The notes under the pieces were generated by a model. It did no database searches, was not told where the DNA came from, and saw nothing but the letters and a program-made list of their open reading frames with translations. Shown here in pieces: positions 53 to 63,202 of a stretch of DNA of 63,202 nucleotides (the stretch's first letter is position 1; each line of letters starts with the position of its first letter). The translations under genes and the position numbers were made by a program. The DNA is from Folioceros fuciformis (Eukaryota), in the NCBI GenBank assembly GCA_049999805.1, contig JBNGIO010006432.1, positions 1 through 63,202 on the forward strand, in the 5' to 3' direction.

Positions 53-3000
53 TTAGCAGCGGGGAGATGTCAGTTGTCGCCCCGCATAATAAATCGGGTG
101 GTCCCTCTTCTTCTCATCTCGTTGGCTGAGCACGACTCCAATAGCAAAGGCTGAGACGTCGACATATACGTGGAATTTCTTGCTCCAATCGGGTCCTTTG
201 AGCGTTGGGGCAGTTACAAGCGTGGTCCTGAAATCCTGAAACGCATCCTCCCGTGCTGACGTCCACACCCATTCCTCATCCTTCCTCAACAACCTGGTCA
301 ACGGCGCTGCTCTTTTAGCGAAGTTCTTGATGAACCTCCTGTAGTATCCAACCATCCCAAGAAATCCCCTCAGGTCCTTTAGCGTGGTCGGTGGTTGGAG
401 TGCTTTAATGATCTTTACTTTGTCAGGATCCACCTCAATCCCTCTAGCCGAAATTTTATGCCCCAACAAGATACCTTCCTACATCCCGAAATAACACTTT
501 TCTGGGTGGAGGCATAGCTTGGCCTCTCTACACCTCTCCAGGCATTTCCTTAGGTGCTGTAGATGCTCCCCCGCTGACCCAAACACATAGAAATCGTCCA
601 GGAATACTTCCATTAAGTCTCGTAGGAAATCCTTAAAAATCTTGACAATTGTTCTCATGAAGGACCCTAGTGCTCCAGTCAGTCCAAATGCGCTGCGCTT
701 GTAGGCATATGTTCCCCAATCGGTGGTGAAGGCAGTTAACGGCCAGTCGCTCTCCCGAAGATGTAACTGGTTATACCCTGAGTACCCGTCCAAAAAGGAA
801 TACGTCATTTTCCCCACCACTAGGTCCAGAATGTTGTCAATGAAAGGTAACGGAAAGTGATCCTTTTGAGTCACCTTGTTCAACCTCATCCAGTCCTGGC
901 ATACTCGAATTTTCCTGGGCTGTTTCTTGGGTACCACTACAATTGGTGCCACCCATTCAGAGGTGACAATGGGATAAATGATGTCTACCTTCAGATACAG
1001 CTCTAGCTGTTCCTTTACTTTCAGGGAGTACTTTGGGTTCAACTAATACTGGGGTATCCTCACGGGCACTGCCCCTGGCTCCAGCTAGATCCTATGCTCC
1101 CCCCACTCCTTGGGAATGCCCTTCATATCTGTGACATCAAACGCAAACACATCAATAAACTCAGCCAGCAGGTCCTTCATCCCTTCCTCCAGCACCGCAT
1201 CCAGCTTGGTGGAGAACTTAAGGATTTTTCCTGGCAGGACCTCCACATCCTTGATCTCATCCGCCTGTACCCACTCTCGTTCGATTGGTGCTGAAGTAGC
1301 ACCAAACCCTTCCTCTAGCGTTTGAGGCTCTGCCTCCCTCATCCCCCATTCACAAAACAGCTCTTCAGAGGTGATCCTCGTGACGCCCTCCTGATCCTTA
1401 GGAATCCTCATGTCCAGGTCAGCCTCTTTGATCCCTTCCGATCCGACTACCTTGGTACCCTCTTGGGCTACCATCCGTTCCCTTCGGGCCTCCGCAGTAG
1501 TCCAAGGGACTACCTCACGTTCCCCTGAGGAAATTTCTTCTTCCCCCGTCTCCTCATCCACTTCCGCCTCTGTGACCCTATAACAACTAACCATAGGTAG
1601 CTGCCACAGGTAATCCTTCTCTTCCTCCGACCACGAGATATGCACAAACGGAAATCTTTCATCCTCATCTGCCTGCCCTTCCGTGTCTTTGGCTGAAGTG
1701 TACCCCTCCGTCTCAAAGGGTGTCTCACCTGCGTACATATCCTTACTCCAAGACAGACACATTCTTCCTTCCTTAGCCTTTGGATCCCAGTCCACTGGTT
1801 TAAAGCCTACTTCCTTCTGCCCCCATTTGAACGTGCACCTGGCACCATACATCCAGGTTCTGCCGATCAGCACCTCATAACCCGGGGCTTTCTGCCTGAT
1901 CACGACATAGTCCATGAGGTAGGGGATAGTTCCAATATGGGTTAATACCCCAAGAATTTCTCCGACTGGCGCCATTTTTGACATATCCGCCAATCGCAAG
2001 ACCTTGGCAATGTGCTCGATTTCCAAACCCAATTTCCTGGCTGTGTCTTCAGTCATAATGTTTACTCCAGACCCTGTGTCCAAAGGTACTTTCTTAATTA
2101 CACATCCCGCGATTTCGATTTGCAGCTCGGCTGGTCCTTGATCTGTCATGGTTACCAAATTCACAGCGTGCGTCCTTGGTCGCACCCTTGGCAGACTTGG
2201 TTTCCTCCTTGGTTGTGCCATCTTCAATGCTCGCCTCAACTACTGCCGATATCGCGGTGTATCTTGGAGCAATTGTCCAAAAGTCACCATGAATTTTTGA
2301 TCCATAATAGCTTCCGCCAAATCCAGCACTCGTGATCTCTCCTTCTCTACCCCTGCCGTCGGCCGAGAGGCCGGGTCCTTTGGCCTGTCCTGTTCCCTTG
2401 CTGGCGTGGTCTTGGCAAGCCCCCCTTTCGTTGCCGCATCCTCCAGCGATTGATTCAACTCCTCTTGGATCATATCAGCCACCTCCTGACGCACATCCGG
2501 AGGAAATCCCAATTTCCTCATTTCATCCAGCCGCAAATCCTTTCCTCCTTCTTCTGCCTTCTGGCCCGTCCCCTTCTCGAGTCGTCGTTGTTCCTCCACG
2601 CGCAGTGTTGACTCCTCGGCCCAGCCGCCTCTAAATTCCTCCTTACCCGAATTTTGTGGGGGTTCCTCTGTCCTTGGCAATTCTTGTTCCTCCTTGTTGA
2701 TCGGAGTGGTGGGGTCTTCTGTACTGGAGGATGTAGTTCGGTCCTTTCCTCCATGCTCCCTCTGCCCCGACTGCTTGTTCTTTGCTGCTTTTGCTCGTCC
2801 CCGAGTTCGGACGGCCATCGCAGGGGCTTCCTCGTAATATTGTCCATCCAAGCTACCCAATCCTTCCAACTTCCTCAACATGCTTTCTCCCGCATCTTCC
2901 CATACAGCCATTAATGCGTCCGTCACTGGTATCGCAGGAGGAGCACTTGGACCAGGGGCCTGAATCACCGCTACTGGGGTGGGGGTAATCCTTACGTGTT

Positions 3001-3430
3001 TCTTTGGCGCAGCACACAAAACGCTTCCGACCACATGGCCCATTTGCTTGCAGTCAGTGCACAACCTCTCATAGTCCCCATTCCCTTGGCGCGTCACCGA
3101 GGGACAGCTGTTCGCAAAGTGCCCTATGCCTCGACAATTATAGCATTGGATTGTTGTCAGCTGCGTCGAATTTCTGGGGGTCTGTCCTCGTATGGGTGCA
3201 TTGTTACGTAAATGTGGAGGGTAGACTGTCTTGGGGTATCCCATCATGGGCATCATTTCCTGAATTTGATAGGCGTCCTCCAAGTAAGCCTCCTCCTCCT
3301 CCTCTTCGTATTCCACAATCTGCACCTTAACCTGCGGACAACTCGCCTTGGAGTGTCCCTACTGTCCGCATGTTGAACAAAAAAGATTTGCCCTTCCCCC
3401 CGTCGCGACCCTCCTCCTCTCATGGTCCTT
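53..3430 (-). mobile_element. Ty3/Gypsy (non-chromovirus-like) gag-pol fragment: CCHC knuckles, protease, RT, start of RNase H; truncated at both ends
   Basis: One frame broken by TAG stops: CSTCGQ*GHSKASC, CYNCRGIGHFANSC, CTDCKQMGH (gag); LDTGSGVN (protease); FLDGYSGYNQ and VFLDDF (RT); PDWSKKFHVYVDVSAFAIG (RNase H). Confidence 0.95.
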
Positions 3431-4164
3431 TACAGCATTGTGTGAACCTCCAAAGTTTGGGGTAGTAGTTTGTTTTGGTTGGAAAAGGGTTAATAGTGGT
3501 ATGGTTTGGTTTTCTTTTTCTACTTATTTTCGCTAATTTTCCTTGATTTTCTGGTCATTTTTCGTATTTTTCTTTGTCCTAATTAGGTTAATTGACCAGG
3601 AAATAGTTGGTTTGGTTATAAGAGTGGGTATAGGTTTGGTCCCAGACCTGGGAAGGTTTAGGTTCGGTACCGGGCCACAGGGTTCGGAAGGTTTGAGTCT
3701 AGGTCTTGTGATTAGTTTAATATTTATTAAATATATATAATATTAAATAACAATATAATAATATTACATAATAAAAATAATAAAATAATGGTTTGAACAT
3801 AGGAACGGGTATCTGGGTATGTCAGTGTCAGGGGTCAGGGTCTGACGATAGGCTGGCTGATTGCTTGGCTGGCATGAACGGCCATGGAGGCCATGCCCTA
3901 GCTAGAGCTAGAGGCAGGGGTTGCGGCCGCCCCCATCTCCCCCCCCTCTCTCCCTTTCTCCCTTCCTCCTCCATTCCCTTCTTGCCCCCTCTTCTTCTTC
4001 TTCCCCTTCCCTCTCATCTCCCTTCCAATCTTTTTGTCCCTCTTCTTCTTGTGGATCCATATTGCAGGTAGGGGGAGAGACACCCAAAGTGTTGGGAGCG
4101 AAGGCTGCTACAGGAGGATCAGGAGCTGCGACCTTGCTCACCATCTCCGATTTCCAGATGCTCC

Positions 4165-5959
4165 TGCTGATTGGGACAAGAAATTCCATGTGTACGTGGA
4201 TGTTTCAGCCTTTGCCATTGGGACAGTCCTTAGCCAGCGGGATGAGAAGGGGAGGGACTACCCAATTTACTATGCTGGACGTCAACTTATGGAGGCTGAA
4301 CGCAAGTACACCACAACCGAGAGGGAGGCACTTGGCATGGTCTACTCTTGTCGTAAATTCCGCCACTACCTCCTCTCCTATGAGTTTGTCTTCCATGTTG
4401 ATCATTTTGCTCTCAAGCACCTAGTCAACAAGGCAGACCTATCGGGCCGCATAGCTCGCTGGATCTTGCTCTTGCAAGAGTTCACATTCACTGTGGAAAC
4501 AAGGGAAGGGCGCAGGCATGTGAATGCTGATTTTCTATCTAGGCTGAAAACGGGGAATGTGGTTCAGGACCAAGAAGATGATTTTCCGGATGAGGCATTT
4601 TCAGCAGACCTAGTGGAGAAGGAGAGGGCCAAACCAAATGTTAGGTTGCCAAGAGGTGAAGGTGCAGCACCAAATGAGAAGGGGAGAAGAGGGTCCCGTA
4701 AGCCTTCCTACCAAGAGGTGTCTGATTTTTTAGGCACGAGGGAATTTCTAGTTGATCTCGCACGGCAGCAGCAGCGTCTATTCTTGTACTTCACAAGGCT
4801 GGTGGTTAAGTACAAGGGCAAGCTGTATCGCACAGAAGCTGATGGCGTGGAGAGGTTGTGGGTCAAACCTGGCTAAGTGGAGCAAGTTATCAGCTCCCTA
4901 CATGAGGGAGAGGCTGGAGGCCATTCTGCAGCCCATGTGACCAGTAGAAAAATTCTGGCAGTAGGGTATTGGTGGCCAACAATGCATGCTGATGCTGGAG
5001 AATTCATCAAGAGGTGTGATGCATGCCAAAGGGTGGGGAAGCCTACTAGGACCACACAATGGCCATTGGTCCCCATCCTAGCCCTAGCACCATTTCAGAA
5101 GTGGGGGATTGATTTTGTAGGACCAATTCAGCCCAAGTCTAAGGGAAGGCAAAACCAATACATCCTGGTGGCAACTGACTACTGCACACGCATGGTGGAG
5201 GCCCAAGCTTTGCCCGTGGACACAGCAAATGTGGTGGCCCGATTTTTGTTTGAGCAAATCATCACAAGGTATGGGTGCCCGTTGGAGCTGGTGAGTGATA
5301 GGGGGACTCATTTCATCAATGAAGTAGTCAAGCACATGACTGAATATTTCAATATCAGTCATAGGAAGACCACTCCCTACAACCCTAAGGCCAATGGACT
5401 CACGGAGAAGGCTAATGGGCTGTTGTGCAAGATTCTCGGCAAGCTCACCGTTACCTATGCTCATGATTGGGATAGGAAGCTCCATTCAGCCTTGTGGGCG
5501 TATAGGACTGCTGAGAAGGTTACTACCCAGCAGACCCCTTATTACCTCACCTATGGACACTCACCGATCATGCCCATCGAATTTGAGGTACCTACCTTGA
5601 GAATGCAGGAGAGCAATCGATTGCCCGTGGAGGAGAGCCAGCTGGAGAGGCTAACCAGTTTTGTGCAGCATGATGAGGATAGGGAACGGGCCTTGGCTGT
5701 TTTCCTTGATGTGTAGGAGAGGAGGAAGAAGTGGCACGACCAGAAGTTGCGTAAACAAGAGTATGTTGTGCCTGGAGATTTAGCCTTGTTATATGACAAT
5801 AGGTACATGCACTTTCCAGGTAAGCTGCACTTGAGATGGATGGGACCTTACAGGGTGCTGGAAGTGTATGAGAATGGGTCCATCCAACTGCAGCACCTCA
5901 ACGGCCCTAACTTGCCAACTAGGGTTAATGGCTGGCGGGTGAAGAAATATTATCAGTAG
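4165..5959 (+). mobile_element. Ty3/Gypsy pol fragment: RNase H and integrase
   Basis: YTTTEREAL and HVNADFLSR (RNase H); HEGEAGGH...CDACQR zinc motif; WGIDFVGP, LVSDRGTHF, ANGLTEK (DDE core); WMGPY; no chromodomain; two in-frame stops. Confidence 0.95.
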
Positions 5960-36876: not shown

Positions 36877-38423
36877 ATGGCCTTCGTGTCCAAGTGGATG
36901 TGCTGCTGCGCGCGAGGCGAGGGCAGGTAATTTTAAGTTTCCGGACTGTGAATTTGGGTATCTTGTGATCCTGTTTAGGAAGGTGCATCCTGGGGCATGC
37001 GGGCGGGTATTTTCCGGAATTGTCTTTGTCGTGGGAAGTGGGATTGTTGTGTGTGAGCGTTGAATGTGCATCTGCTTGGGGGCGCTGTGCAGGCCCGATA
37101 AGAAGGATAAGGGTACGTGGCGGATATTCTCGTTGAAGGAGTTACAAGCCGCCACGAACAGCTTCAATTACGACAACAAGCTTGGGGAAGGAGGGTTTGG
37201 GAGTGTGTACTGGGGACAGCTCTGGGATAGCACGCAGGTGGGTTGCTGATTTCCACGATGTTGGTCATTGGTTGTGGATGTGTATGGGGATGGGGATGGT
37301 GTTTGGATGGGTCGGTGGGTGAGTGGGTGTATTGATGTGTATCGCTCGTTTGGTTTTTTTGTTTTGGTTTTGTGGAAAAGATCGCCGTCAAGAGATTGAA
37401 GGTGTGGAGCACGAAAGCGGAGATGGAATTTGCTGTGGAAGTTGAGATCCTGGGGCGAGTTCGACACAAGAATCTGCTTAGCCTTCGGGGCTACTGTGCT
37501 GAAGGGCAAGAGCGGCTCATTGTGTACGATTATATGCCGAATTTGAGCTTGCTGTCCCACTTGCATGGGCAATTCGCATCCGAGTCACAGCTCGACTGGC
37601 GAAGGAGGATGAGCATTGCGATTGGATCTGCTGAGGGCCTCGCGTAAGTGGTGATGCTGATTTTGCTTCGCGCCTTTCGTGTTGTTGTTACTTTAGGCTA
37701 GACATTGTGCCTGCCCCACCCCTACCGTCACCTCACCCGAAGAATGTGCTCTGTGTCAGGTACCTGCATCACTACTCCACGCCTCACATCATCCACCGTG
37801 ATGTCAAGGCCAGCAATGTTTTGCTTGACTCTAATTTTGATGCGCAAGTGGCTGACTTCGGTTTTGCCAAGCTCATCCCAGATGGTGCCACTCATGTGAC
37901 CACGAGGGTAAAGGGGACCCTGGGCTACCTAGCTCCAGAGTACGCTATGTGGGGGAAAGTGTCGGAGAGCTGCGATGTTTACAGCTTCGGGATCTTGTTG
38001 CTGGAACTCATCAGTGGGAAGAAGCCAATTGAAAAGCTGGGACCTGGGACGAAACGGACAATAGTCGAGTGGGCTGCACCTTTGGTCTTCCAAGGGAAAC
38101 TCGAAGACCTTGTAGACCCGAAGCTGAATGGCAGGTATTCAGAGGACGAGCTGAGAAGAGTCGTGCAGGTTGCAACAATGTGTGCGCAGAGCACCCCAGA
38201 AAACAGGCCCACCATGTTGGAAGTCGTACAACTCCTAAAAGGAGAAGTGAAGGATAAGGCCGCCAAGGTGGAAAATGGGCAAGATGGTGACACGAAGTTG
38301 AAGCTCGACACTGTCAAGTACGAGGAGGAATTGCTGGCTGCAGACGATGGATCCGCGGAGTCCAACTCCGGAAATACAAATGAAGGTATCCATGCCGCTC
38401 GGCCTGGGGAGAAAGTCCACTGA
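36877..38423 (+). CDS. PTI1-like receptor-like cytoplasmic kinase, 4 exons
   Basis: [65 protein letters not shown] introns join the ORF pieces. Confidence 0.95.
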
Positions 38424-52779: not shown

Positions 52780-53656
52780 CCCCCGACCTCAATCCTCGAA
52801 AACGTTCTCCCCGGTCAGAGAGCCTGGAGAAGGGATGGAGGAAGTCCCTCCTTCAGACTGGAAACCACCGCTTCCCGCAGAAACTAAATACGGAGAGGCA
52901 GTGGATCCCCGTGATCAAGACAGCCAAGACTGGTTGGGGTTTCACCCTTCTCCTTTTTCATACTTCTACATACTCTCTGTATTTTGTTCACGATTAAACC
53001 TGCTGAAGCTGGTTGAGATCTTTTGCGCGTCTTCTCCGTCGGCCATGTTTGAGGCAAAGGGTTGGCTGATGGCGGTGGCAGTGGTGGGTTCAGGTGCATC
53101 GCTGGTGGGACCTCCCCTGTTTCATTTGCTGAGGAAACGATGTCGGACAAGGAGTGCGAAAACACAGGTTACTTGAAGCAAGGTCTGGCTGGCGATGCGG
53201 CTATGGAGGGAGTGAAGGCAGCCAGCACATTCTCAGGCGTGATGTAGAGAAAGTCACGTGGAAGACCTTCAGGTACTGGGATGGGGAAGCTCAAGTGCCG
53301 AAGAACGTAGGACGTCGTCTGATCATTTCTAGGTTTAAGAACGTTTGAAGTTCGTCATTCCCTCATGTGTCATATTGGTACGTAGGTACTCATTTCTATT
53401 CAGGAGAAGAAAGTGAGGAGACCTCTGTCCAGATCCGTTACTCTGTGGCCATCCCGCCAAGAACCGGAGACAAAGGATAGCATCAGGCAAGCCCGTAAGG
53501 CCCAATTTAAAATTGCTGGCGTACTCGGGTAGACAGACAGTTTGTTCGTAGCTTTAAAATCAATTAAAGGGTTCGGGGTTGGCTGAGGTTAACACTACCT
53601 AACCAGCACTGGTGCAGGAATCGATCAAAGCAGGCACCGCACAAGCCTGCTTGGCG

Positions 53657-54724
53657 ATGGAGACGAGGGTATGCGTCCGGGGCCCAATGAAGCCATGTTA
53701 CGAGAACATCCTCACACCCGAGGCACTGCAATTCGTTGCGGATCTGCACCGGAGAGTGCATCTCAGCGTGAAGGATGCCATGGAGCGACGGCGAGAGCAA
53801 CACGCGCGTTTCGCAGCGGGCGGCTTCCCGGAATTGGATCCAGCGACGAGGGAAATCCGGCAAGGGGAATGGTCATGTGAAGGCGTCGAGCCAGAGATCC
53901 TATCCTCCCGGCGACGGGTGCAGATCAAATTCTTAGGTCCAGAATCGCGGAAGACGCTCATGGAATTAGTACGAGGATTTCCATCCGACAGCGAAGCCGA
54001 GGAGGATGTACAGTCGGAGATGAATGACGAAGAGCTCAGCCTTGCTTGGGACAGCATAATCCTAGAGCACATCAGCCTCCGGGAATTCGTACACGGCGAT
54101 ATCACCTACGGCGACCTCGAACAGGACACGACTTACAGCATCGACGACGAGCATTCCCCCTTGTTGATGGTCTGTCCCCGCCCCTGGCATCTAACGGAGC
54201 CAAACGTGGAGGTGGACGGGGAGCCAGTTGTAGCCGCGGTCTTCGATTTCGGGCTCTTCTTCTTCCACAACCACGCCGTCTTCAGAGACAGGCACGGCGG
54301 GTGCGGCCCTTTCTTTCACCTCCCTCAGATGGAGCACTCCCGGGAGGCCGCCATCTGGAAGACCGTGTTCGAGGTCGCGGAGACTGCAGTTCAAGCTCCT
54401 CGGCATTCCATCCGCGGGACCTTGATCATCGAGACCCTGCCGGCCGTGTTCCAAATGCACGAGATGCTCTATGAGTTGCGGGAGCATTCGGGCGGAATGT
54501 GTGCCAAAATTGGCGAGTCGTCCCACTTCGACCTCAACAAGCCTACCGACAGGGAGCTTTCTAGGGAGAGAATCACGTTCAAGACTCGGACCCTAATACG
54601 TGAAGCTGTTAATCTCGTCCGCGCAACTTGCTGGTTGCGCGGGGTCCAATTACTTTTACCGCGTGATCGTCCGTCGTTCACTAGAATGTCTATTATGAGA
54701 CGTGAAGCGCGAGGTTCTTCATAA
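53657..54724 (+). CDS. Malate-synthase-like ORF, intronless, lacking the C-terminal half
   Basis: ILTPEALQFVADLHR; DPATREIRQGEW; PRPWHL; FDFGLFFFHN; GPFFHLPQMEHSREAAIW; LIIETLPAVFQMHEMLYELREHS; similarity decays afterwards. Confidence 0.8.
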   Translation: METRVCVRGPMKPCYENILTPEALQFVADLHRRVHLSVKDAMERRREQHARFAAGGFPELDPATREIRQGEWSCEGVEPEILSSRRRVQIKFLGPESRKTLMELVRGFPSDSEAEEDVQSEMNDEELSLAWDSIILEHISLREFVHGDITYGDLEQDTTYSIDDEHSPLLMVCPRPWHLTEPNVEVDGEPVVAAVFDFGLFFFHNHAVFRDRHGGCGPFFHLPQMEHSREAAIWKTVFEVAETAVQAPRHSIRGTLIIETLPAVFQMHEMLYELREHSGGMCAKIGESSHFDLNKPTDRELSRERITFKTRTLIREAVNLVRATCWLRGVQLLLPRDRPSFTRMSIMRREARGSS

Positions 54725-55455: not shown

Positions 55456-58359
55456 TTAGGGTCGACCCTTGCAGCTGCAACAGCCGGCTGCGAACCGATG
55501 CACACGGAAACCATCCCTCACAACGATCTGTCTCTGTTCCAGCCTCGACATGATCTCGGTAGAACTGTGGCAGTCACTGCACATGCGTAGATTTTTCGTT
55601 ACCAGTAGAGGTGCCCCGTTAGGTGTGTTCAAGAGACCAAACGCCAGAGCTAGCTTCTCCGCATGACCGCAGAGGGCGTCTTCCTTTTCCTTCTCACACC
55701 CTGGCTTCAACACCAATTTTGTGTGAGGTACGTGGCCTCCTTCCTGCTTCAGACGTGAATTCGAGCTGTCTACCTTGTGCGCAATATCCTCTCTCCTTTC
55801 TCCTACCAGGAATGAATGTACCTGCTTATTCACCTCCACGGTCGCCACTGCAGGTTTCTTGTTAGCTCCTGCTGCCATTCTCTGTGTTTCAATCCTGTTC
55901 ACGTCGGTCCACCTACCTGCATCTGCGTACGCGTTGGCCATGAGAACATGAGCTGACGCGTTTTTGGGGTCCACCTTAACAATGCGTTCAAAACACCAGA
56001 TGGCCCTTTCTATATCACCGTGACTTTTGCAGGCGTTCAACAGAGACGTCAAGCCCACAACGTTACTTTCAAATTGGCCCTCGCATGATAATAGCATCTT
56101 CTCTGCCTCATCTAGATGGCCAGCACGACCAAGAAGATCAATCATGCAGGTGTAATGTTCAAAAGTAGGTTTGATGCCGTGCTCCTCCGCCACAGAATCG
56201 AAGTATTTGCAACCCTCGTGGACCAGTCCCTCATGGCTGCATGCTACTAGAAGGCAAGTGAAAGTGGCATCATTAGGCTCCACACCCGCAGCTAACATCT
56301 CCTCGAAACAAGCTAGTGCCTTGTGACCTTCATCACACGCACCATACCCAGCAATCAGCGCTGTCCATGTCACCACATCCTTTCTGTTCATGTTGTCAAA
56401 GACCTGGAGTGCATCGTCCAGTTCACCACATTTTGCATACATGTCCACCAGGGCGTTGCCCACCACTAAGTCATCCAGCAGTCCTCTTTCAACAATCTGT
56501 GAGTGCAGTTGCATGGCCTTCTGTAAGGCACCAGTGCTTGCGCAGGCCTTCAGAAGGCAAGCGAAAGTAACATGATCAGCCAAAATGAGGCCCGCCTCCT
56601 CCATTTGTCCATACACAACAAGCGCCTCTTGGCCGAGTCCTTGCTGTGCATAACCAGCAATCAGGACGGTCCATGTCACCACATTCTTGGTGGCCAAGCT
56701 CTCAAAAACCTGGCGTGCATCGTCCAGTTCACCACATTTTGCATACATGTCTACAAGGCACGTGCCCACCACCACGTCATTCAGCAGTCGTCTTCCCACA
56801 ATCTGTGAGTGCAGCTGCCTGCCCTTCTGCAAGGCACCACTGCTTGCACAGGCCTTCAAAAGGCAAGCAAAAGTGACACGGTCAGCCAAGATGAGGCCCG
56901 CCTCCTCCATCTGTCCATACACAAGAAGCGCCTCCTGGCCGAGTCCTTGCTGTGCATACCCGGCTATCAAGGCAGTCCACGTCACCACATCCTTGGTGTT
57001 CATGCTGTCAAAAACCTGGCGTGCATCTTCCAGTTCACCACATTTTGCATACATGTCCACCAGGCAGTTACCCACCACCACGTTATCCACCAGTCCCCTT
57101 CCAACAATCTGTGAGTGCAGCTGCCTGCCCTTCTGTAAGCCACCCGTGCTTGCACAGGCCTTCAAAAGGCAAGAAAAAGTAACATGGTTCGCCACTACCA
57201 GCCCCTCCTGCTCCATTTGTCCATACACAACAAGTGCCTCATGTCCGAGCCCATGCTGGGAATAGCCAGCAATCAGCACCGTCCATGTCACCACATCCCT
57301 TGTGGCCATGCTGTCGAAAACCTGGCGAGCATCTTTCAGTTCGCCACATTTTGCGTACATGTCCACCAGGCAGTTGCCAACAAACACGTTAGTAGAAACC
57401 CCACTCTGCACCACATCACAGTGCACTTTTCTGCCAGATTCTAAGTCGGCAGCCATTGCACAAGCTTGAAGGGCAGCCACGAAGACGTGAGCATCCGCCT
57501 TCACTCCTGAACTACGCATCTCATGGTAGAGTTGTACGGCCTCGTTAGGTTTCCCATTCCTAGCGTAGGCCGAGATTATGGAAGACCACATGAAGGCATC
57601 CGGTTCGCCCACCCTCTTGAGCACATCCATGGCCTCCTCTAGCCTACCTCCGCATGCATACATGCGCAAGATATGGTTCCCCAAGTATGCATTCGACTCG
57701 TACCCAAGTTGGACACTGAGGGTATGAACTCGTCGCCCCACAACCAAATCCTTCCTGGCAGTACACAGTTTAAGCACAGTGCAAAACAGGTCGGGAGAAA
57801 CAGCAGAGCCTGTCTGCGCCAGATATTCCAGGGCTCTCACGGCCTCAAGAAGCCTCCCCTGCCCACATAACAAGCTCACGGTTCCAGCCGTCACAACCCC
57901 CAATTCCAATCTTGCACGCCGCCCAGCTCCAATATTATCTGAAGGAAAGGCAGCATGGCTCATCTGCAAATCCAAGGAAACGAGCTGCTCATCAACCCAA
58001 GCTGGCTTGCACATGTTGTTTAACCACAGCACCTCGCCGGACCCCTTCCGCCGGAAATCAGGTGAACGGGAGCGCTTCTTATCTCGTCTGTTGTCCCACC
58101 ACATGGTCGGGTCCAGAAAGAATTGCTTCCACAAATGCTCCTGGCCCTGCTCCTGCTCCTGGCAACCACCATCTCTGGACAACCCATCCCTACCAACACC
58201 CTGTCTCGGAAGTGGACGTGCTGCGCTGCTGCACCTGGAGGCTTTGTCTGCCAGGGCTTGACTTCCTAAGCTGAGTTGACTGGGCGGAGCTCGACGAATC
58301 TCTGCACCCACACCAGATTGCTGGGTCCACAACGAGTCTGGCTGCCATACTGTAGCCAT
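55456..58359 (-). CDS. PLS-class PPR protein with C-terminal DYW:KP (GRP-type) deaminase domain and N-terminal PDF motif; intronless, 967 aa
   Basis: Repeated P-L-S motifs; E motifs; KKPAVATVEV in place of the PG box; HAEKLALAFGL; CSDCH; terminal CSCKGRP. Confidence 0.95.
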   Translation of the reverse strand: MATVWQPDSLWTQQSGVGAEIRRAPPSQLSLGSQALADKASRCSSAARPLPRQGVGRDGLSRDGGCQEQEQGQEHLWKQFFLDPTMWWDNRRDKKRSRSPDFRRKGSGEVLWLNNMCKPAWVDEQLVSLDLQMSHAAFPSDNIGAGRRARLELGVVTAGTVSLLCGQGRLLEAVRALEYLAQTGSAVSPDLFCTVLKLCTARKDLVVGRRVHTLSVQLGYESNAYLGNHILRMYACGGRLEEAMDVLKRVGEPDAFMWSSIISAYARNGKPNEAVQLYHEMRSSGVKADAHVFVAALQACAMAADLESGRKVHCDVVQSGVSTNVFVGNCLVDMYAKCGELKDARQVFDSMATRDVVTWTVLIAGYSQHGLGHEALVVYGQMEQEGLVVANHVTFSCLLKACASTGGLQKGRQLHSQIVGRGLVDNVVVGNCLVDMYAKCGELEDARQVFDSMNTKDVVTWTALIAGYAQQGLGQEALLVYGQMEEAGLILADRVTFACLLKACASSGALQKGRQLHSQIVGRRLLNDVVVGTCLVDMYAKCGELDDARQVFESLATKNVVTWTVLIAGYAQQGLGQEALVVYGQMEEAGLILADHVTFACLLKACASTGALQKAMQLHSQIVERGLLDDLVVGNALVDMYAKCGELDDALQVFDNMNRKDVVTWTALIAGYGACDEGHKALACFEEMLAAGVEPNDATFTCLLVACSHEGLVHEGCKYFDSVAEEHGIKPTFEHYTCMIDLLGRAGHLDEAEKMLLSCEGQFESNVVGLTSLLNACKSHGDIERAIWCFERIVKVDPKNASAHVLMANAYADAGRWTDVNRIETQRMAAGANKKPAVATVEVNKQVHSFLVGERREDIAHKVDSSNSRLKQEGGHVPHTKLVLKPGCEKEKEDALCGHAEKLALAFGLLNTPNGAPLLVTKNLRMCSDCHSSTEIMSRLEQRQIVVRDGFRVHRFAAGCCSCKGRP

Positions 58360-60676: not shown

Positions 60677-63202
60677 CTACCGGCTCATCTCGGACATGAA
60701 CCGCTCATATTCTGACTCAACGGCATTGTTCTGCTGGCCACTTGAGGCAGAGACACTAGCAGTGTTTGCCCAAGGGGGTGGCATGCCACCAGGAGGTGGA
60801 GGTGGCGGCTGTGAGGGAGGCGCACTCGTTGGCGGAGGCGGGGGTGCTGGATAATAGCCAGGATATTGAGGCATGGGCATGTAAGAGCTGCTTCCCATCG
60901 GGCCAACAGGTGCACTAGAAGGTCGTGTTCCTGGCCTGGGACCCATGACATTAATAGGGCTTGGAGGCATCCCAGGAATGCTGGGTCCAGCAGCAGGTGT
61001 ACCTGGCAGTGTCCCTGCAGCAGGTGGCTGTGCTGGTTGACCAGGTGGAGGGGGTCCTGATGGCGGAGCCCCTTGAGAAGGGAGTCCTGAGTACACACTG
61101 TAAGGTCCTCCATAAATTGGAGGAGGAGGACCACGGGGAGGTCCACCGGGAGGTGGCGGTCCCGCAGGTGGTGGTGGCCCATACATATTACCTGGAGGCG
61201 GACCATATGGACTGTATGGCGGATGACCACCAGGGGCCACCCAGGGCGGCATCCTCATCTGACCGGCTGGGGGTCCACGAGGTGGTTGTTGCTGTGAAGA
61301 CTGCTGGGATGGTGGGACCTGCGGTGGTGGCTGTTGCTGCTGTGGAGGAGGATATCCTCCACCCATCATCTCCATTCCGCCTGGATGTGGCCCACCAGAA
61401 GGAGGAGGACGACCTGCAACTCGCACTGCTAAGATTTTACCATCAAGTCTGTATCCGTTCATATGAGTAACAGCCTGCGCTGCACAAGTGGAATCAGTAT
61501 ACTTCACAAACCCATACCCCTTGCTAGATCCATTCATTCTGTCACGAATGACCTTAGCATCCTCCACCCGACCAAATGGAGAAAACAACCGCAAAAGACC
61601 CTCATCGTCCACAGAATTGGGCAAGTACCCAACATATAAATTTGAGTCATCACCATCCTTACTGAACTTCGAACCACCACTAGTACCTGGAGGTCCTTGG
61701 TAAAAGCTATTAGTAAACCCCTGCTGTTGAGGCATCCCACCTGTTCCCGGAGGCGTGCCCATAGGAGGACCCATGGCTCCTGCCCCTACAAATGTGTCCG
61801 ACAGACTACCCAGCCCTGGACTGCCACCCATCCTTCCTGCACCCATACCTCCACTGCCTGGTGCTCCAGCACCAGCACTTCCAGAACCCGACCCACTTCC
61901 AGCACCTGCTGACCAGGGCCCTCCCTGGCCCTGCGGGCCTGGAAGGGATAGCTGAGGTCCAGCCGGCCCTGCGCTGCGCCCAACCTCTCCACTGCCAGTA
62001 CTGCCATCACCGCCTCCCAATTCAGCCAGAAAACTCTTGTACTCATCATCCATCTTGTTACCTTGCGTAGAGCCCTTGAGCGGACAGTCAAGGGTAGGAT
62101 GCCCACCGTCACCACAGATGCGGCAGCTCACATCACTCTTGAAGGTAGAATGACGGGCTGGGCATGCATATTGACGATGACCCGGCTCCCCGCATAACCG
62201 ACAGTACTCATCATCTCTGATAGTCCCATTAAGAGCTGCAAGCTCCCGAAGTTGAGCCCGCTTGTGCTCATTTCTCCCTTCTTCCACAGGCACCAGCAAT
62301 TTCTCGACCATCCCACCGGCTTTCTCCAAGCCATCAGCTGTATCTGCCTCTATCAACACATGCAGATCTTCATTTTCAGAAGGATCTGGCTTCATGTCGC
62401 GCCTTTGCTGTGACCGACCTTCTTTCACGGAGCCCTTGCCCCGTATCACTATCTTGGCACCGGTTTCCCTTTCCATCCGCTTCTGGGTGTTACCACGAGG
62501 GCCAATGATGAGACCAATGAAATTGTACCCAGGATACTCCTTAACGGGAATGTACAACTTCTTGTACAATTTCGGTGGCTTGTAGTCCGCAGGAGGTTTG
62601 AAATGAGGATTCTTCTTTATCAGCTGCGTGATAATCTCCTGTCTCTCTCTCGTCAACTTCTCTCGTGCCCTATACTCGCGGGTGTTGATCCTTATCCCCA
62701 TATTATCATAGATTGGTTCTGGAGACGGAGACCTCGCACCATCGGGCCTCTCATCAAGAACCTACAAGAAAACCCACTCCATAAGCAGACCCAAACCCTC
62801 CTCTCGACTCTTACAGGTTCCTCTGACCCACATTGTCAAACCCACAAACAACCATGCGAAAAGACACCCACCAACGCAGTCCACAAACCACAGAACATCA
62901 GCAACCCCTTCAAGCAATTCTGCCATACCTGCCCCGTGGACAACTTCCTGTTGATATCCAGCAGCTTGATATTCAGCGCCTGCAACTCCGGATCCAACTC
63001 CACTCCACCAGTCAGCTCCTTCACAAACTCAGGAAGCTGAATCTGGCCGAGCAGCTGCCTGGGGGCATCATCAGCCCACCTGGACTTACGCTTCCTCACA
63101 CTCCCTTCCCCATCCTGATTCTCCCCCTCCCCATCCGGCTGCGGCCCCCACCTGCTCCGCCTCCTCTTACCAGAACCGCCATCCGCCGCAGCGACCTGGC
63201 TC
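60677..63202 (-). CDS. SF1: Splicing factor 1 / branchpoint-bridging protein; 5' end outside the window, intron ~62762-62928
   Basis: [24 protein letters not shown]2 [15 protein letters not shown]; two CCHC knuckles; RRM (LYVGYL...KGYGFV); Pro-rich tail. Confidence 0.97.

Follow-up and report, generated by a model that had tools for sequence, protein, structure and literature searches.

Why should an RNA editing factor carry, at its N-terminus, a motif of the plant organellar ssDNA-binding (OSB) proteins? Plant organelle RNA editing owes its specificity to PLS-class PPR proteins, which are being made into programmable C-to-U and U-to-C editors; the moss proteins PPR56 and PPR65 have been studied in a heterologous assay in E. 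coli (PMC6397227). The question is raised by a gene in the window analysed here, a stretch of 63,202 nucleotides from Folioceros fuciformis (contig JBNGIO010006432.1). Judged by its sequence, the gene at 55456-58359 on the minus strand encodes a PLS-class PPR editing factor of the DYW:KP type (GRP variant) with one N-terminal PDF module.

The reading frame is intact and consists of a single exon of 967 amino acids, one run from ATG to stop, with a stop codon one codon 5' of the ATG. The 51-residue peptide on which the original prediction was built is encoded exactly, on the minus strand. The interval given for it (57982-58135) did not hold, however: the true end is 58134, and at 154 nt the interval is one nucleotide too long and out of frame in both directions. 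Residues 1-75 (58135..58359, minus strand) form a presequence, delimited by low pLDDT, low identity to the closest homologue (P0163) and the lack of any Pfam family. In the full-length AlphaFold model, residues 1-66 have pLDDT values below 50 and are modelled as disordered; they contain 8 K+R against 5 D+E, and 19 S/T/A. The modelled disorder and this composition make the presequence a probable candidate for an organelle transit peptide. The first PPR-like hairpin begins at residue 158, and the motif does lie, as had been claimed, between such an N-terminus and the first PPR.

The PLS-class PPR array spans residues 158-779 (56023..57888, minus strand) and comprises 18 helical hairpins in the model; Pfam matches it as PPR (E 1.2e-92 in 12 stretches) and PPR_2 (E 2.1e-90). 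The 306-bp tandem repeat that Tandem Repeats Finder reports at 56343..57389, without strand (3.4 copies, 85% matches), consists of duplicated 102-aa PLS triplets within the array. The array is followed by the E motif region (E1/E2) at residues 780-842 (55834..56022, minus strand; Pfam E_motif PF20431, E 2.5e-15), where two E hairpins are modelled at 767-796 and 801-830. The C-terminal DYW:KP deaminase-like domain, assigned from Pfam and alignment to the GRP variant, covers residues 835-967 (55459..55857, minus strand) and has 8 residues in common with the Pfam E_motif match; Pfam DYW_deaminase (PF14432) matches residues 875-965 with an E-value of 9.7e-31. HAE at 899-901 and CSDCH at 927-931 represent the HxE and CxxC zinc-ligand patterns. 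When the domain is aligned with 53 homologous DYW domains, KKPAVATVEV is found to replace the PG box KKxPGxSWIE, a 4-residue gap falls where PG-type domains have xHPQ, and the C-terminal triplet is GRP. The motif in the place of the PG box, here KPAVA, is the one that we take to be called KPAxA. KP-type domains are described as having a replaced PG box, an alanine in HAE and a last triplet other than DYW, as in the GRP variant (PMC9478123), and all three of these regional features are found here. A conserved Lys88 is also ascribed to DYW:KP domains (PMC11845758). K922 (LLVTKNLRMC) falls on position 88 if the 133-residue domain is counted back from its C-terminus, a numbering of our own.

The protein resembles the DYW:KP proteins of the GRP variant, i.e. 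the hornwort candidate and designer KP2/KP3 U-to-C editors: it has the PLS array and the E motifs, KPAxA for the PG box, HAE, the 4-residue gap and the C-terminal GRP; by our C-terminal count, K922 would be a candidate equivalent of Lys88. It differs from them in its N-terminus, since the accounts consulted in PMC9478123 and PMC11845758 give a PLS tract and C-terminal domains and no PDF module. Designer KP proteins are reported to function without one (PMC9478123), so that catalysis as such does not require the module. OSB proteins, for their part, are described as acting in DNA recombination and as having an SSB-like OB fold followed by 1-5 PDF copies (PMC13393729, PMC6963530). They share with the present protein nuclear encoding and organelle targeting by an N-terminal presequence, the targeting being putative here. 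In contrast to them, the present protein has one N-terminal PDF motif and no OB fold, placed before a PPR-E-DYW editing body. SSB is absent from the best 25 of 38 Pfam families for the whole protein, which beyond its N-terminal 156 residues consists of PPR, E and DYW. With the PDF motif N-terminal and no OB fold among these Pfam matches, the domain content indicates that the protein is not an OSB.

The PDF motif was reportedly defined by Zaegel et al. in 2006. It is described as a unit some 50 residues long that is marked by the conserved signature Pro-Asp-Phe (PMC6963530). Residues 76-126 (57982..58134, minus strand), located by exact translation, comprise 51 residues including P100-D101-F102, and in an alignment of 108 sequences this triplet and R91 occupy invariant columns. 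When the 51 residues were run with phmmer against a set of 1.84 billion representative proteins, 514 matches reached E<=1e-3, of which 94 had E<=1e-10 and 13 had E<=1e-30; 32 of the best 150 matches show the OSB architecture, with a Pfam SSB domain preceding the motif copies. A profile made solely from the 56 motif copies of 32 SSB-domain proteins matches residues 76-126 with 69.4 bits across all 50 profile positions (Z=1.84e9, E=1.1e-14). Because a profile of OSB copies matches from end to end, we regard the stretch as a genuine PDF motif; the HMM match on which the original prediction of an OSB-type motif had been made to depend is there. How the search is done matters: a word-index search with the 51-mer alone gave one candidate and no significant match, whereas the exhaustive search recovered the 514, and Pfam, which has no model for the PDF motif, reports no family at E<=1 for residues 1-156.

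The motif has the complete conserved core of the OSB copies (W, P, WWDNR, K, PDF, K, LW, P-WV), i.e. W2, P9, W12, D14, R16, K19, P-D-F, K30, L36, W37, P43, W45 and V46. The sole strongly conserved column from which it departs is position 29, where it has R; the usual residue there is H (55 of the 59 PPR-borne copies, 44 of the 56 OSB-borne ones). PPR-borne copies differ from OSB-borne ones in having preferences of their own at positions 5, 8, 20 and 33: F5 is present in 88% vs 32%, D8 in 81% vs 12% and K20 in 64% vs 27%, and G33 is mostly lost relative to the OSB copies. Could the resemblance be due to chance, or could an OSB fragment merely abut a PPR gene? The motif is short, and there are merged-looking models such as P0153. 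The E-value at that database size, the uninterrupted reading frame and the recurrence of this arrangement in over 100 independent proteins speak against it, and this explanation is effectively refuted.

According to AlphaFold, the motif is the central part of a folded module at residues 65-137 (57949..58167, minus strand), made up of a helix (65-82), two strands (87-89 and 102-104) around a loop (90-101) and a second helix (122-136). The loop is basic, with 6 K+R in 12 residues, and the module contains five tryptophans. An AlphaFold2 model of residues 66-136 with alignment A1 has a mean pLDDT of 90.9 and a pTM of 0.77, and the full-length model reproduces the same elements; the module is thus predicted with confidence to be a discrete helix/hairpin/helix unit. 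It is connected to the PPR tract by a flexible linker at residues 138-157 (57889..57948, minus strand), recognized by its pLDDT (below 50 for residues 138-153 in the full-length model) and low identity. A Foldseek search against the PDB found no neighbour of the module (two matches at E<=10, the best at E 3.1, and none at E<=0.001), so the fold supplies no independent hint of function. At the sequence level, the A1 profile matches, with its OB-fold part, SSBs of known structure from bacteria and mitochondria; these SSB OB folds, at profile positions 31-133, are its only matches, and the PDF part matches no PDB sequence.

Identity to P0163 is 9/75 in the presequence, 31/51 in the PDF motif, 5/34 in the linker (127-160) and 369/619 in the PPR array. 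In this comparison of sequences the PDF motif is conserved as much as the PPR tract and both of its flanks have diverged. This bears on the idea that the motif has no role in the mature protein, being removed with the transit peptide, serving import only or representing the relic of a decaying fusion. Its location within the first 126 residues and its absence from 78 of 120 homologues would fit this idea. However, it is conserved like the PPR tract where its flanks are not, its core is intact, and a confident fold is unusual for a presequence. Moreover, copies in 61 further PDF-PPR proteins start anywhere from residue 2 to 223, mostly behind a presequence of variable length. We therefore consider a motif without a mature role highly improbable.

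The original prediction had implied a special link between the PDF motif and DYW:KP proteins. The 120 closest homologues divide into 42 with 1-3 PDF copies at the N-terminus and 78 with none; the motif is found in 16 of 38 canonical HSE/DYW proteins, 2 of 12 KP-like proteins and 24 of 67 whose DYW signature is not intact. None of the 78 negatives has a copy at a domain E-value of 1e-3 or below, and two weak partial matches above that value are to fern proteins. A search targeted at the PDF motif yielded 67 candidates, 64 of them significant; all 64 are PPR proteins by precomputed Pfam annotation, with matches from Sphagnum, Calypogeia and Diphasiastrum. The OSB-only profile confirmed 61 of 62 further PDF-PPR proteins, in most of which the copy is near the N-terminus. 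The order of presequence, 1-3 PDF copies and PLS PPR array is hence common to 42/120 homologues and 61/62 further proteins, some of which have 2-3 PDF copies. The targeted set includes 32 canonical DYW proteins with a PDF motif, mostly from Sphagnum and Calypogeia, and in the parts of the literature consulted DYW:KP is not reported for mosses or liverworts (PMC9478123, PMC13386178). The implied link was not borne out. A KP-specific association is ruled out by the co-occurrence counts in the homologues, and since the motif is frequent in canonical DYW proteins, the gene is one member of a large PDF-PPR group, represented here in mosses, a leafy liverwort and a lycophyte, and not a singular fusion. 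From its occurrence, the module appears as an accessory of PLS editing factors generally and not as a device specific to U-to-C editing.

In the closest-homologue sample the motif was found in 0 of 45 fern and seed-plant proteins, 25 of which are from seed plants. This taxonomic boundary is blurred by P0119, a PDF-bearing fragment whose nearest matches are fern proteins. Some of the PDF-less homologues, e.g. P0197 and P0162, still have N-terminal sequence in their ORFs. Among the database models there are apparent mergers, such as P0153, in which PDF copies lie at residues 144 and 682.

In a FastTree phylogeny of 415 motif copies, 57 of the 59 PPR-borne copies fall into one clade (support 84) together with eight copies from short unclassified proteins, and the tree requires 9 label changes vs 52-59 in 200 shuffles. 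In an IQ-TREE quick tree of 158 distinct copies, with 5 label changes vs 38-53 in shuffles, the main PPR clade has 95 members and excludes seven PPR-borne copies, including those of the present gene, P0163 and P0193. Monophyly of all PPR-borne copies is not rejected by the AU test (p-AU 0.646) and lies 15.6 log-likelihood units above the free quick tree. Built on just 50 columns and from many paralogues, the trees are evidence of clustering rather than of history.

What could the module contribute to an editing factor? The reading that we tentatively favour, with a confidence that falls a little short of even, is that of a sequence-independent clamp on single-stranded nucleic acid that adds affinity beside the PPR tract. 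The module would survive transit-peptide cleavage and remain at the mature N-terminus, where it would act as such a clamp irrespective of sequence. PPR tracts read RNA 5' to 3' starting from their own N-terminus; a module that precedes the tract on a leash of about 20 residues would therefore sit at the RNA exit, on the 5' side. There it might grip the RNA through its aromatic W/F residues and the basic loop, and this grip would add avidity and keep the editing site single-stranded in lineages without MORF helpers. The module seems dispensable for many relatives, however, being absent from 78 of the 120 homologues, among them 10 of the 12 KP-like proteins.

The biochemistry of the OSBs poses a further difficulty. 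PDF motifs are reported to be responsible for ssDNA binding, and in AtOSB1 to be sufficient for it (PMC4166229, PMC6963530), and recombinant AtOSB1 and AtOSB2 are described as preferring ssDNA to dsDNA or RNA (PMC4166229). At face value this preference favours a tether over RNA binding: the module would bind ssDNA at transcription bubbles, R-loops or replication and recombination intermediates, and would concentrate the editor at the nucleoid for the editing of nascent transcripts. This was the main idea of the original prediction, which also named extra nucleic-acid affinity, and is the main rival of the clamp. The PPR-borne motif keeps the whole conserved OSB core, and a flexible leash would permit simultaneous contacts to DNA and RNA. 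On the other hand, the systematic differences between PPR-borne and OSB copies (F5, D8, K20 and G33) are compatible with a shifted ligand, and the module occurs in hundreds of paralogues with different RNA targets, which a general RNA-handling role fits at least equally well. We rate a nucleoid tether as somewhat unlikely, though to be taken seriously.

Alternatively, the module might mediate protein-protein contacts, either in oligomerisation or in docking to OSBs or other editosome components. AtOSB2 is reported to be a tetramer, but the same work, as far as consulted, credits the motif with ssDNA binding and not with assembly (PMC6963530). The phmmer matches include many PDF proteins with 2-13 copies, and the 2-3 copies of some PDF-PPR proteins would also suit such a role. 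The five tryptophans and the basic loop are, however, typical of nucleic-acid contacts, and we consider a protein-protein module improbable.

The fusion itself seems to have escaped description. In the literature searched, no account of PDF-PPR proteins was found, in agreement with the earlier statement that no functional description of the combination is known. In a kingdom-wide fusion survey (PMC13386178), the words OSB and PDF have no occurrences. The RRM-PPR fusions described there (PMC13386178) are similar in that a PPR protein carries an extra single-strand-binding domain, but the domain is a different one. MORF/RIP proteins, described as restricted to seed plants and acting in trans (PMC13386178), may offer a functional analogy only, as non-PPR accessories to PLS editing factors; their sequence is unrelated, and the PDF module is fused in cis, here in bryophyte and lycophyte proteins.

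Returning to the clamp, it is conceivable, although we think it doubtful, that PDF-PPR proteins are an old, perhaps ancestral, form of land-plant editor, in which the clamp was captured once from an OSB gene and helped in cis before MORF proteins, acting in trans, assumed that task in seed plants. Such an ancestral clamp would account for a fusion that is frequent in mosses, liverworts, hornwort-like KP proteins and lycophytes but missing from the sampled seed-plant homologues; the apparent complementarity of PDF and MORF comes from a sample biased towards relatives of one protein.

For the family, the finding means that the PDF motif is not confined to OSB proteins, which bears on OSB censuses that, as described, require the PDF motif together with an OB fold (PMC13393729). 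It also suggests that many PPR gene models are cut short directly behind the PDF motif. Editing in bryophytes and lycophytes is highly efficient without MORF helpers, and the PDF module is a candidate for the helper function; alternatively, it may couple editing physically to the nucleoid. Designer editors could be fitted with the module, provided that it increases the affinity for RNA.

The original prediction placed an OSB-type PDF motif at 57982..58135. The quoted peptide is encoded letter for letter by window 57982-58134 on the minus strand; the given end did not hold, because an interval of 154 nt yields the peptide on neither strand. These positions correspond to residues 76-126 of a 967-aa ORF (55456..58359, minus strand). 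An in-frame stop lies one codon upstream of its ATG, and the simplest gene model is therefore one exon that begins with this ATG. Pfam assigned 12 PPR stretches (E 1.2e-92) to the protein, placed an E motif at residues 780-842 and a DYW deaminase domain at residues 875-965, and had no match at E≤1 in the first 156 residues. In the alignment, the C-terminal domain has KPAVA in the place of the PG box and HAE instead of HSE; it also shows a 4-residue gap and ends in GRP. This indicates a KP type by the criteria in the available excerpts of PMC9478123, which name two variants in hornworts, GRP being one of them. With a domain length of 133 residues, K922 would be equivalent to Lys88 as numbered in excerpts of PMC11845758. 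The PPR array also contains a 306-bp tandem repeat (window 56343-57389, 3.4 copies, 85% matches), which consists of recently duplicated 102-aa PLS triplets.

Elsewhere in the window, LTR retroelement pieces span 1085-5716: a zinc-knuckle (gag-like) ORF (2240-3325, minus), an RT-RNaseH ORF (4034-4876, plus) and an integrase ORF (4877-5716, plus), with only stops between the adjacent ORFs. A neighbouring splicing-factor-1/BBP-like gene (60677-62701, minus) combines an SF1 helix-hairpin, a KH and an RRM domain with a long tail rich in Pro and Gly; the open-ended ORF upstream of it (62836-63201, minus) probably holds its first exon. ORFs with malate synthase domains (53612-54724, plus) and with a protein kinase domain's C-terminal half (37707-38423, plus) probably represent exons of nuclear genes with introns.

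According to the available excerpts of PMC6963530, PMC4166229 and PMC13393729, the PDF motif spans 50 residues and has a conserved Pro-Asp-Phe, and plant OSBs carry at least one copy C-terminal to the OB fold, where it is responsible for ssDNA binding. The 51-residue motif was compared with 1.84 billion representative proteins by exhaustive phmmer. Of the 514 matches at E≤1e-3, 94 reached E≤1e-10 and 13 reached E≤1e-30. Most of the matched proteins are 250-600 residues long and contain 2-13 such stretches close to the C-terminus. When the best 150 were scanned with Pfam (E≤1e-5), the motif copies followed an SSB domain in 32; of the others, 5 had PPRs, one a kinesin motor and three weak matches to other families, while 109 had no family. 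As the original prediction had proposed, a profile was built from OSB repeats only (56 copies, all from the 32 SSB-bearing proteins). It aligned over its whole length to residues 76-126 with 69.4 bits (E 1.1e-14 even with Z set to 1.84e9). R91 and P100-D101-F102 are invariant in an alignment of 108 sequences, and W77, P84, W87, D89, K94, L111, W112, P119 and W121 are conserved in at least 90%. With its OB-fold part, the profile of this alignment also matches bacterial and mitochondrial SSBs of known structure, and the comparison set is therefore really the OSB family. Together, these results confirm the motif's identification as PDF. Two matched proteins, P0053 (1526 aa, a kinesin motor and PDF copies in three stretches) and P0078 (1920 aa, FAF/DUF5474 matches and PDF copies in nine stretches), may be further fusions or merged gene models.

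AlphaFold2 modelled residues 66-136 with the 108-sequence alignment at a mean pLDDT of 90.9 and a pTM of 0.77. In this model, a basic loop (NRRDKKRSRSPD; K+R 6 of 12 residues) lies between two short strands, with one helix before them and another after. A Foldseek search of the PDB found no structural neighbour of the module (best E 3.1). In the model of the whole protein, made with an alignment of 61 sequences (mean pLDDT 89.0), the N-terminus (residues 1-66) is disordered, the PDF module (65-137) is confident and the linker (138-153) is again disordered; 18 PPR hairpins begin at residue 158, and two E hairpins and then the DYW domain come after them. The predicted position between N-terminus and PPR array is thus borne out in the model, where the disorder on both sides suggests that the module is a separate bead on a flexible leash. 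The closest homologue, P0163, is likewise of GRP type and 59% identical overall. Identity is 31/51 in the PDF motif, 9/75 in the presequence, 5/34 in the linker, 369/619 in the PPR array, 36/63 in E and 92/125 in DYW. The motif is a conserved island between two diverged flanks, which favours a function in the mature protein; that it is a relic was ranked behind every functional reading.

The OSB-only profile was then used to scan the best 120 of 4198 significant homologues (8000 candidates scored), with a cut-off of domain E≤1e-3 at Z=1.84e9. Among these 120, 42 carry 1-3 PDF copies, and in 41 of the 42 the motif precedes the PPR array. By source, tallied by hand from the protein names of the same best 120, the motif was found in 37/47 Diphasiastrum complanatum proteins, 1/1 from Calypogeia fissa, 2/20 Logan and 2/7 JGI/ENA proteins, but in 0/20 from ferns (Adiantum 14, Ceratopteris 6), 0/13 from Cryptomeria, 0/10 'Gb_' proteins and 0/2 from angiosperms. 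Three D. complanatum models (P0173, P0233, P0242) start at a Met directly after the place of the motif in their paralogues and are probably truncated annotations, so the PDF frequency is probably underestimated. P0153, from the same species, has copies at residues 144 and 682 and is probably a merger of two genes. The 155-aa fragment P0119, which is nearest to Adiantum and Ceratopteris proteins, holds a full PDF and then the start of a PPR, and the Adiantum models P0165 and P0209 show weak partial matches at the extreme N-terminus (26.2 and 15.5 bits). Ferns may thus also have the fusion, hidden by truncated models.

The original prediction implied a link to DYW:KP proteins, which the counts did not support. 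Among the 53 of the 120 homologues with an intact HxE...CxxCH signature, the motif is present in 16/38 HSE/PG-type, 2/12 HAE/KP-like (P0163, GRP; P0193, DRH) and 0/3 HCE-type proteins; outside this set it occurs in 24/67. Some KP-like ORFs have N-terminal sequence without PDF, which indicates that the motif is facultative. A second search with the PDF region of the homologue P0245 gave 64 significant hits from 67 candidates, all 64 PPR proteins by precomputed Pfam: 38 from Sphagnum (seven species), 4 from Calypogeia fissa, 7 from Diphasiastrum and 15 others. The OSB-only profile confirmed a copy in 61 of 62 new proteins, starting at residues 2 to 223; 32 of them have a canonical HSE...DYW, and none has HAE. 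Judged by the sequences from both searches, the fusion is widespread among the PLS editing factors of bryophytes and one lycophyte and is not tied to U-to-C editors. That the combination is an artefact was ranked last among the explanations.

PPR-borne copies share the whole OSB core, but have preferences of their own (F5, D8, K20, no G33); the host protein has F5, D8 and K20 but retains G33. Trees built from the 50 motif columns show strong clustering of the PPR-borne copies, with 9 label changes (FastTree; 52-59 in 200 shuffles) or 5 (IQ-TREE quick; 38-53 in shuffles), although paralogue kinship inflates this clustering. The two programs disagree on whether the host protein's copy and its nearest relatives fall inside the main PPR clade. 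A single PPR clade was not rejected by the AU test (constrained tree better by 15.6 lnL, p-AU 0.646), and one capture event behind all PPR-borne copies is possible. The PDF copies of P0044 (366 aa, no Pfam family) group with the PPR-borne rather than the OSB copies; its N-terminal half looks OB-fold-like by eye, and it may be an intermediate form.

Among the full texts searched, there was no description of a PDF-PPR fusion, functional or otherwise, in line with the original prediction. The words OSB and PDF are both absent from a kingdom-wide survey of fused domains in editing factors, published in 2026 (PMC13386178). Both parts belong to known families, and the host gene is one member of a large, apparently undescribed architecture.

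Homology, fold, tethering, conservation and distribution are directly supported for this module; its function is a reading beyond those data. Designer KP proteins edit without it (excerpts of PMC9478123), so that it is an accessory with no part in catalysis. Excerpts of PMC4166229 attribute ssDNA binding to the PDF motif, and a module N-terminal to a PPR tract is located where bound RNA exits at its 5' side. On these two grounds we rank first a sequence-independent clamp on RNA that would add avidity. The tether to ssDNA or nucleoids in the original prediction comes second; AtOSB1/2 prefer ssDNA to RNA (same excerpts). A protein-protein role follows the tether. MORF proteins are restricted to seed plants according to the available part of PMC13386178, and an RNA clamp would matter in lineages without them.
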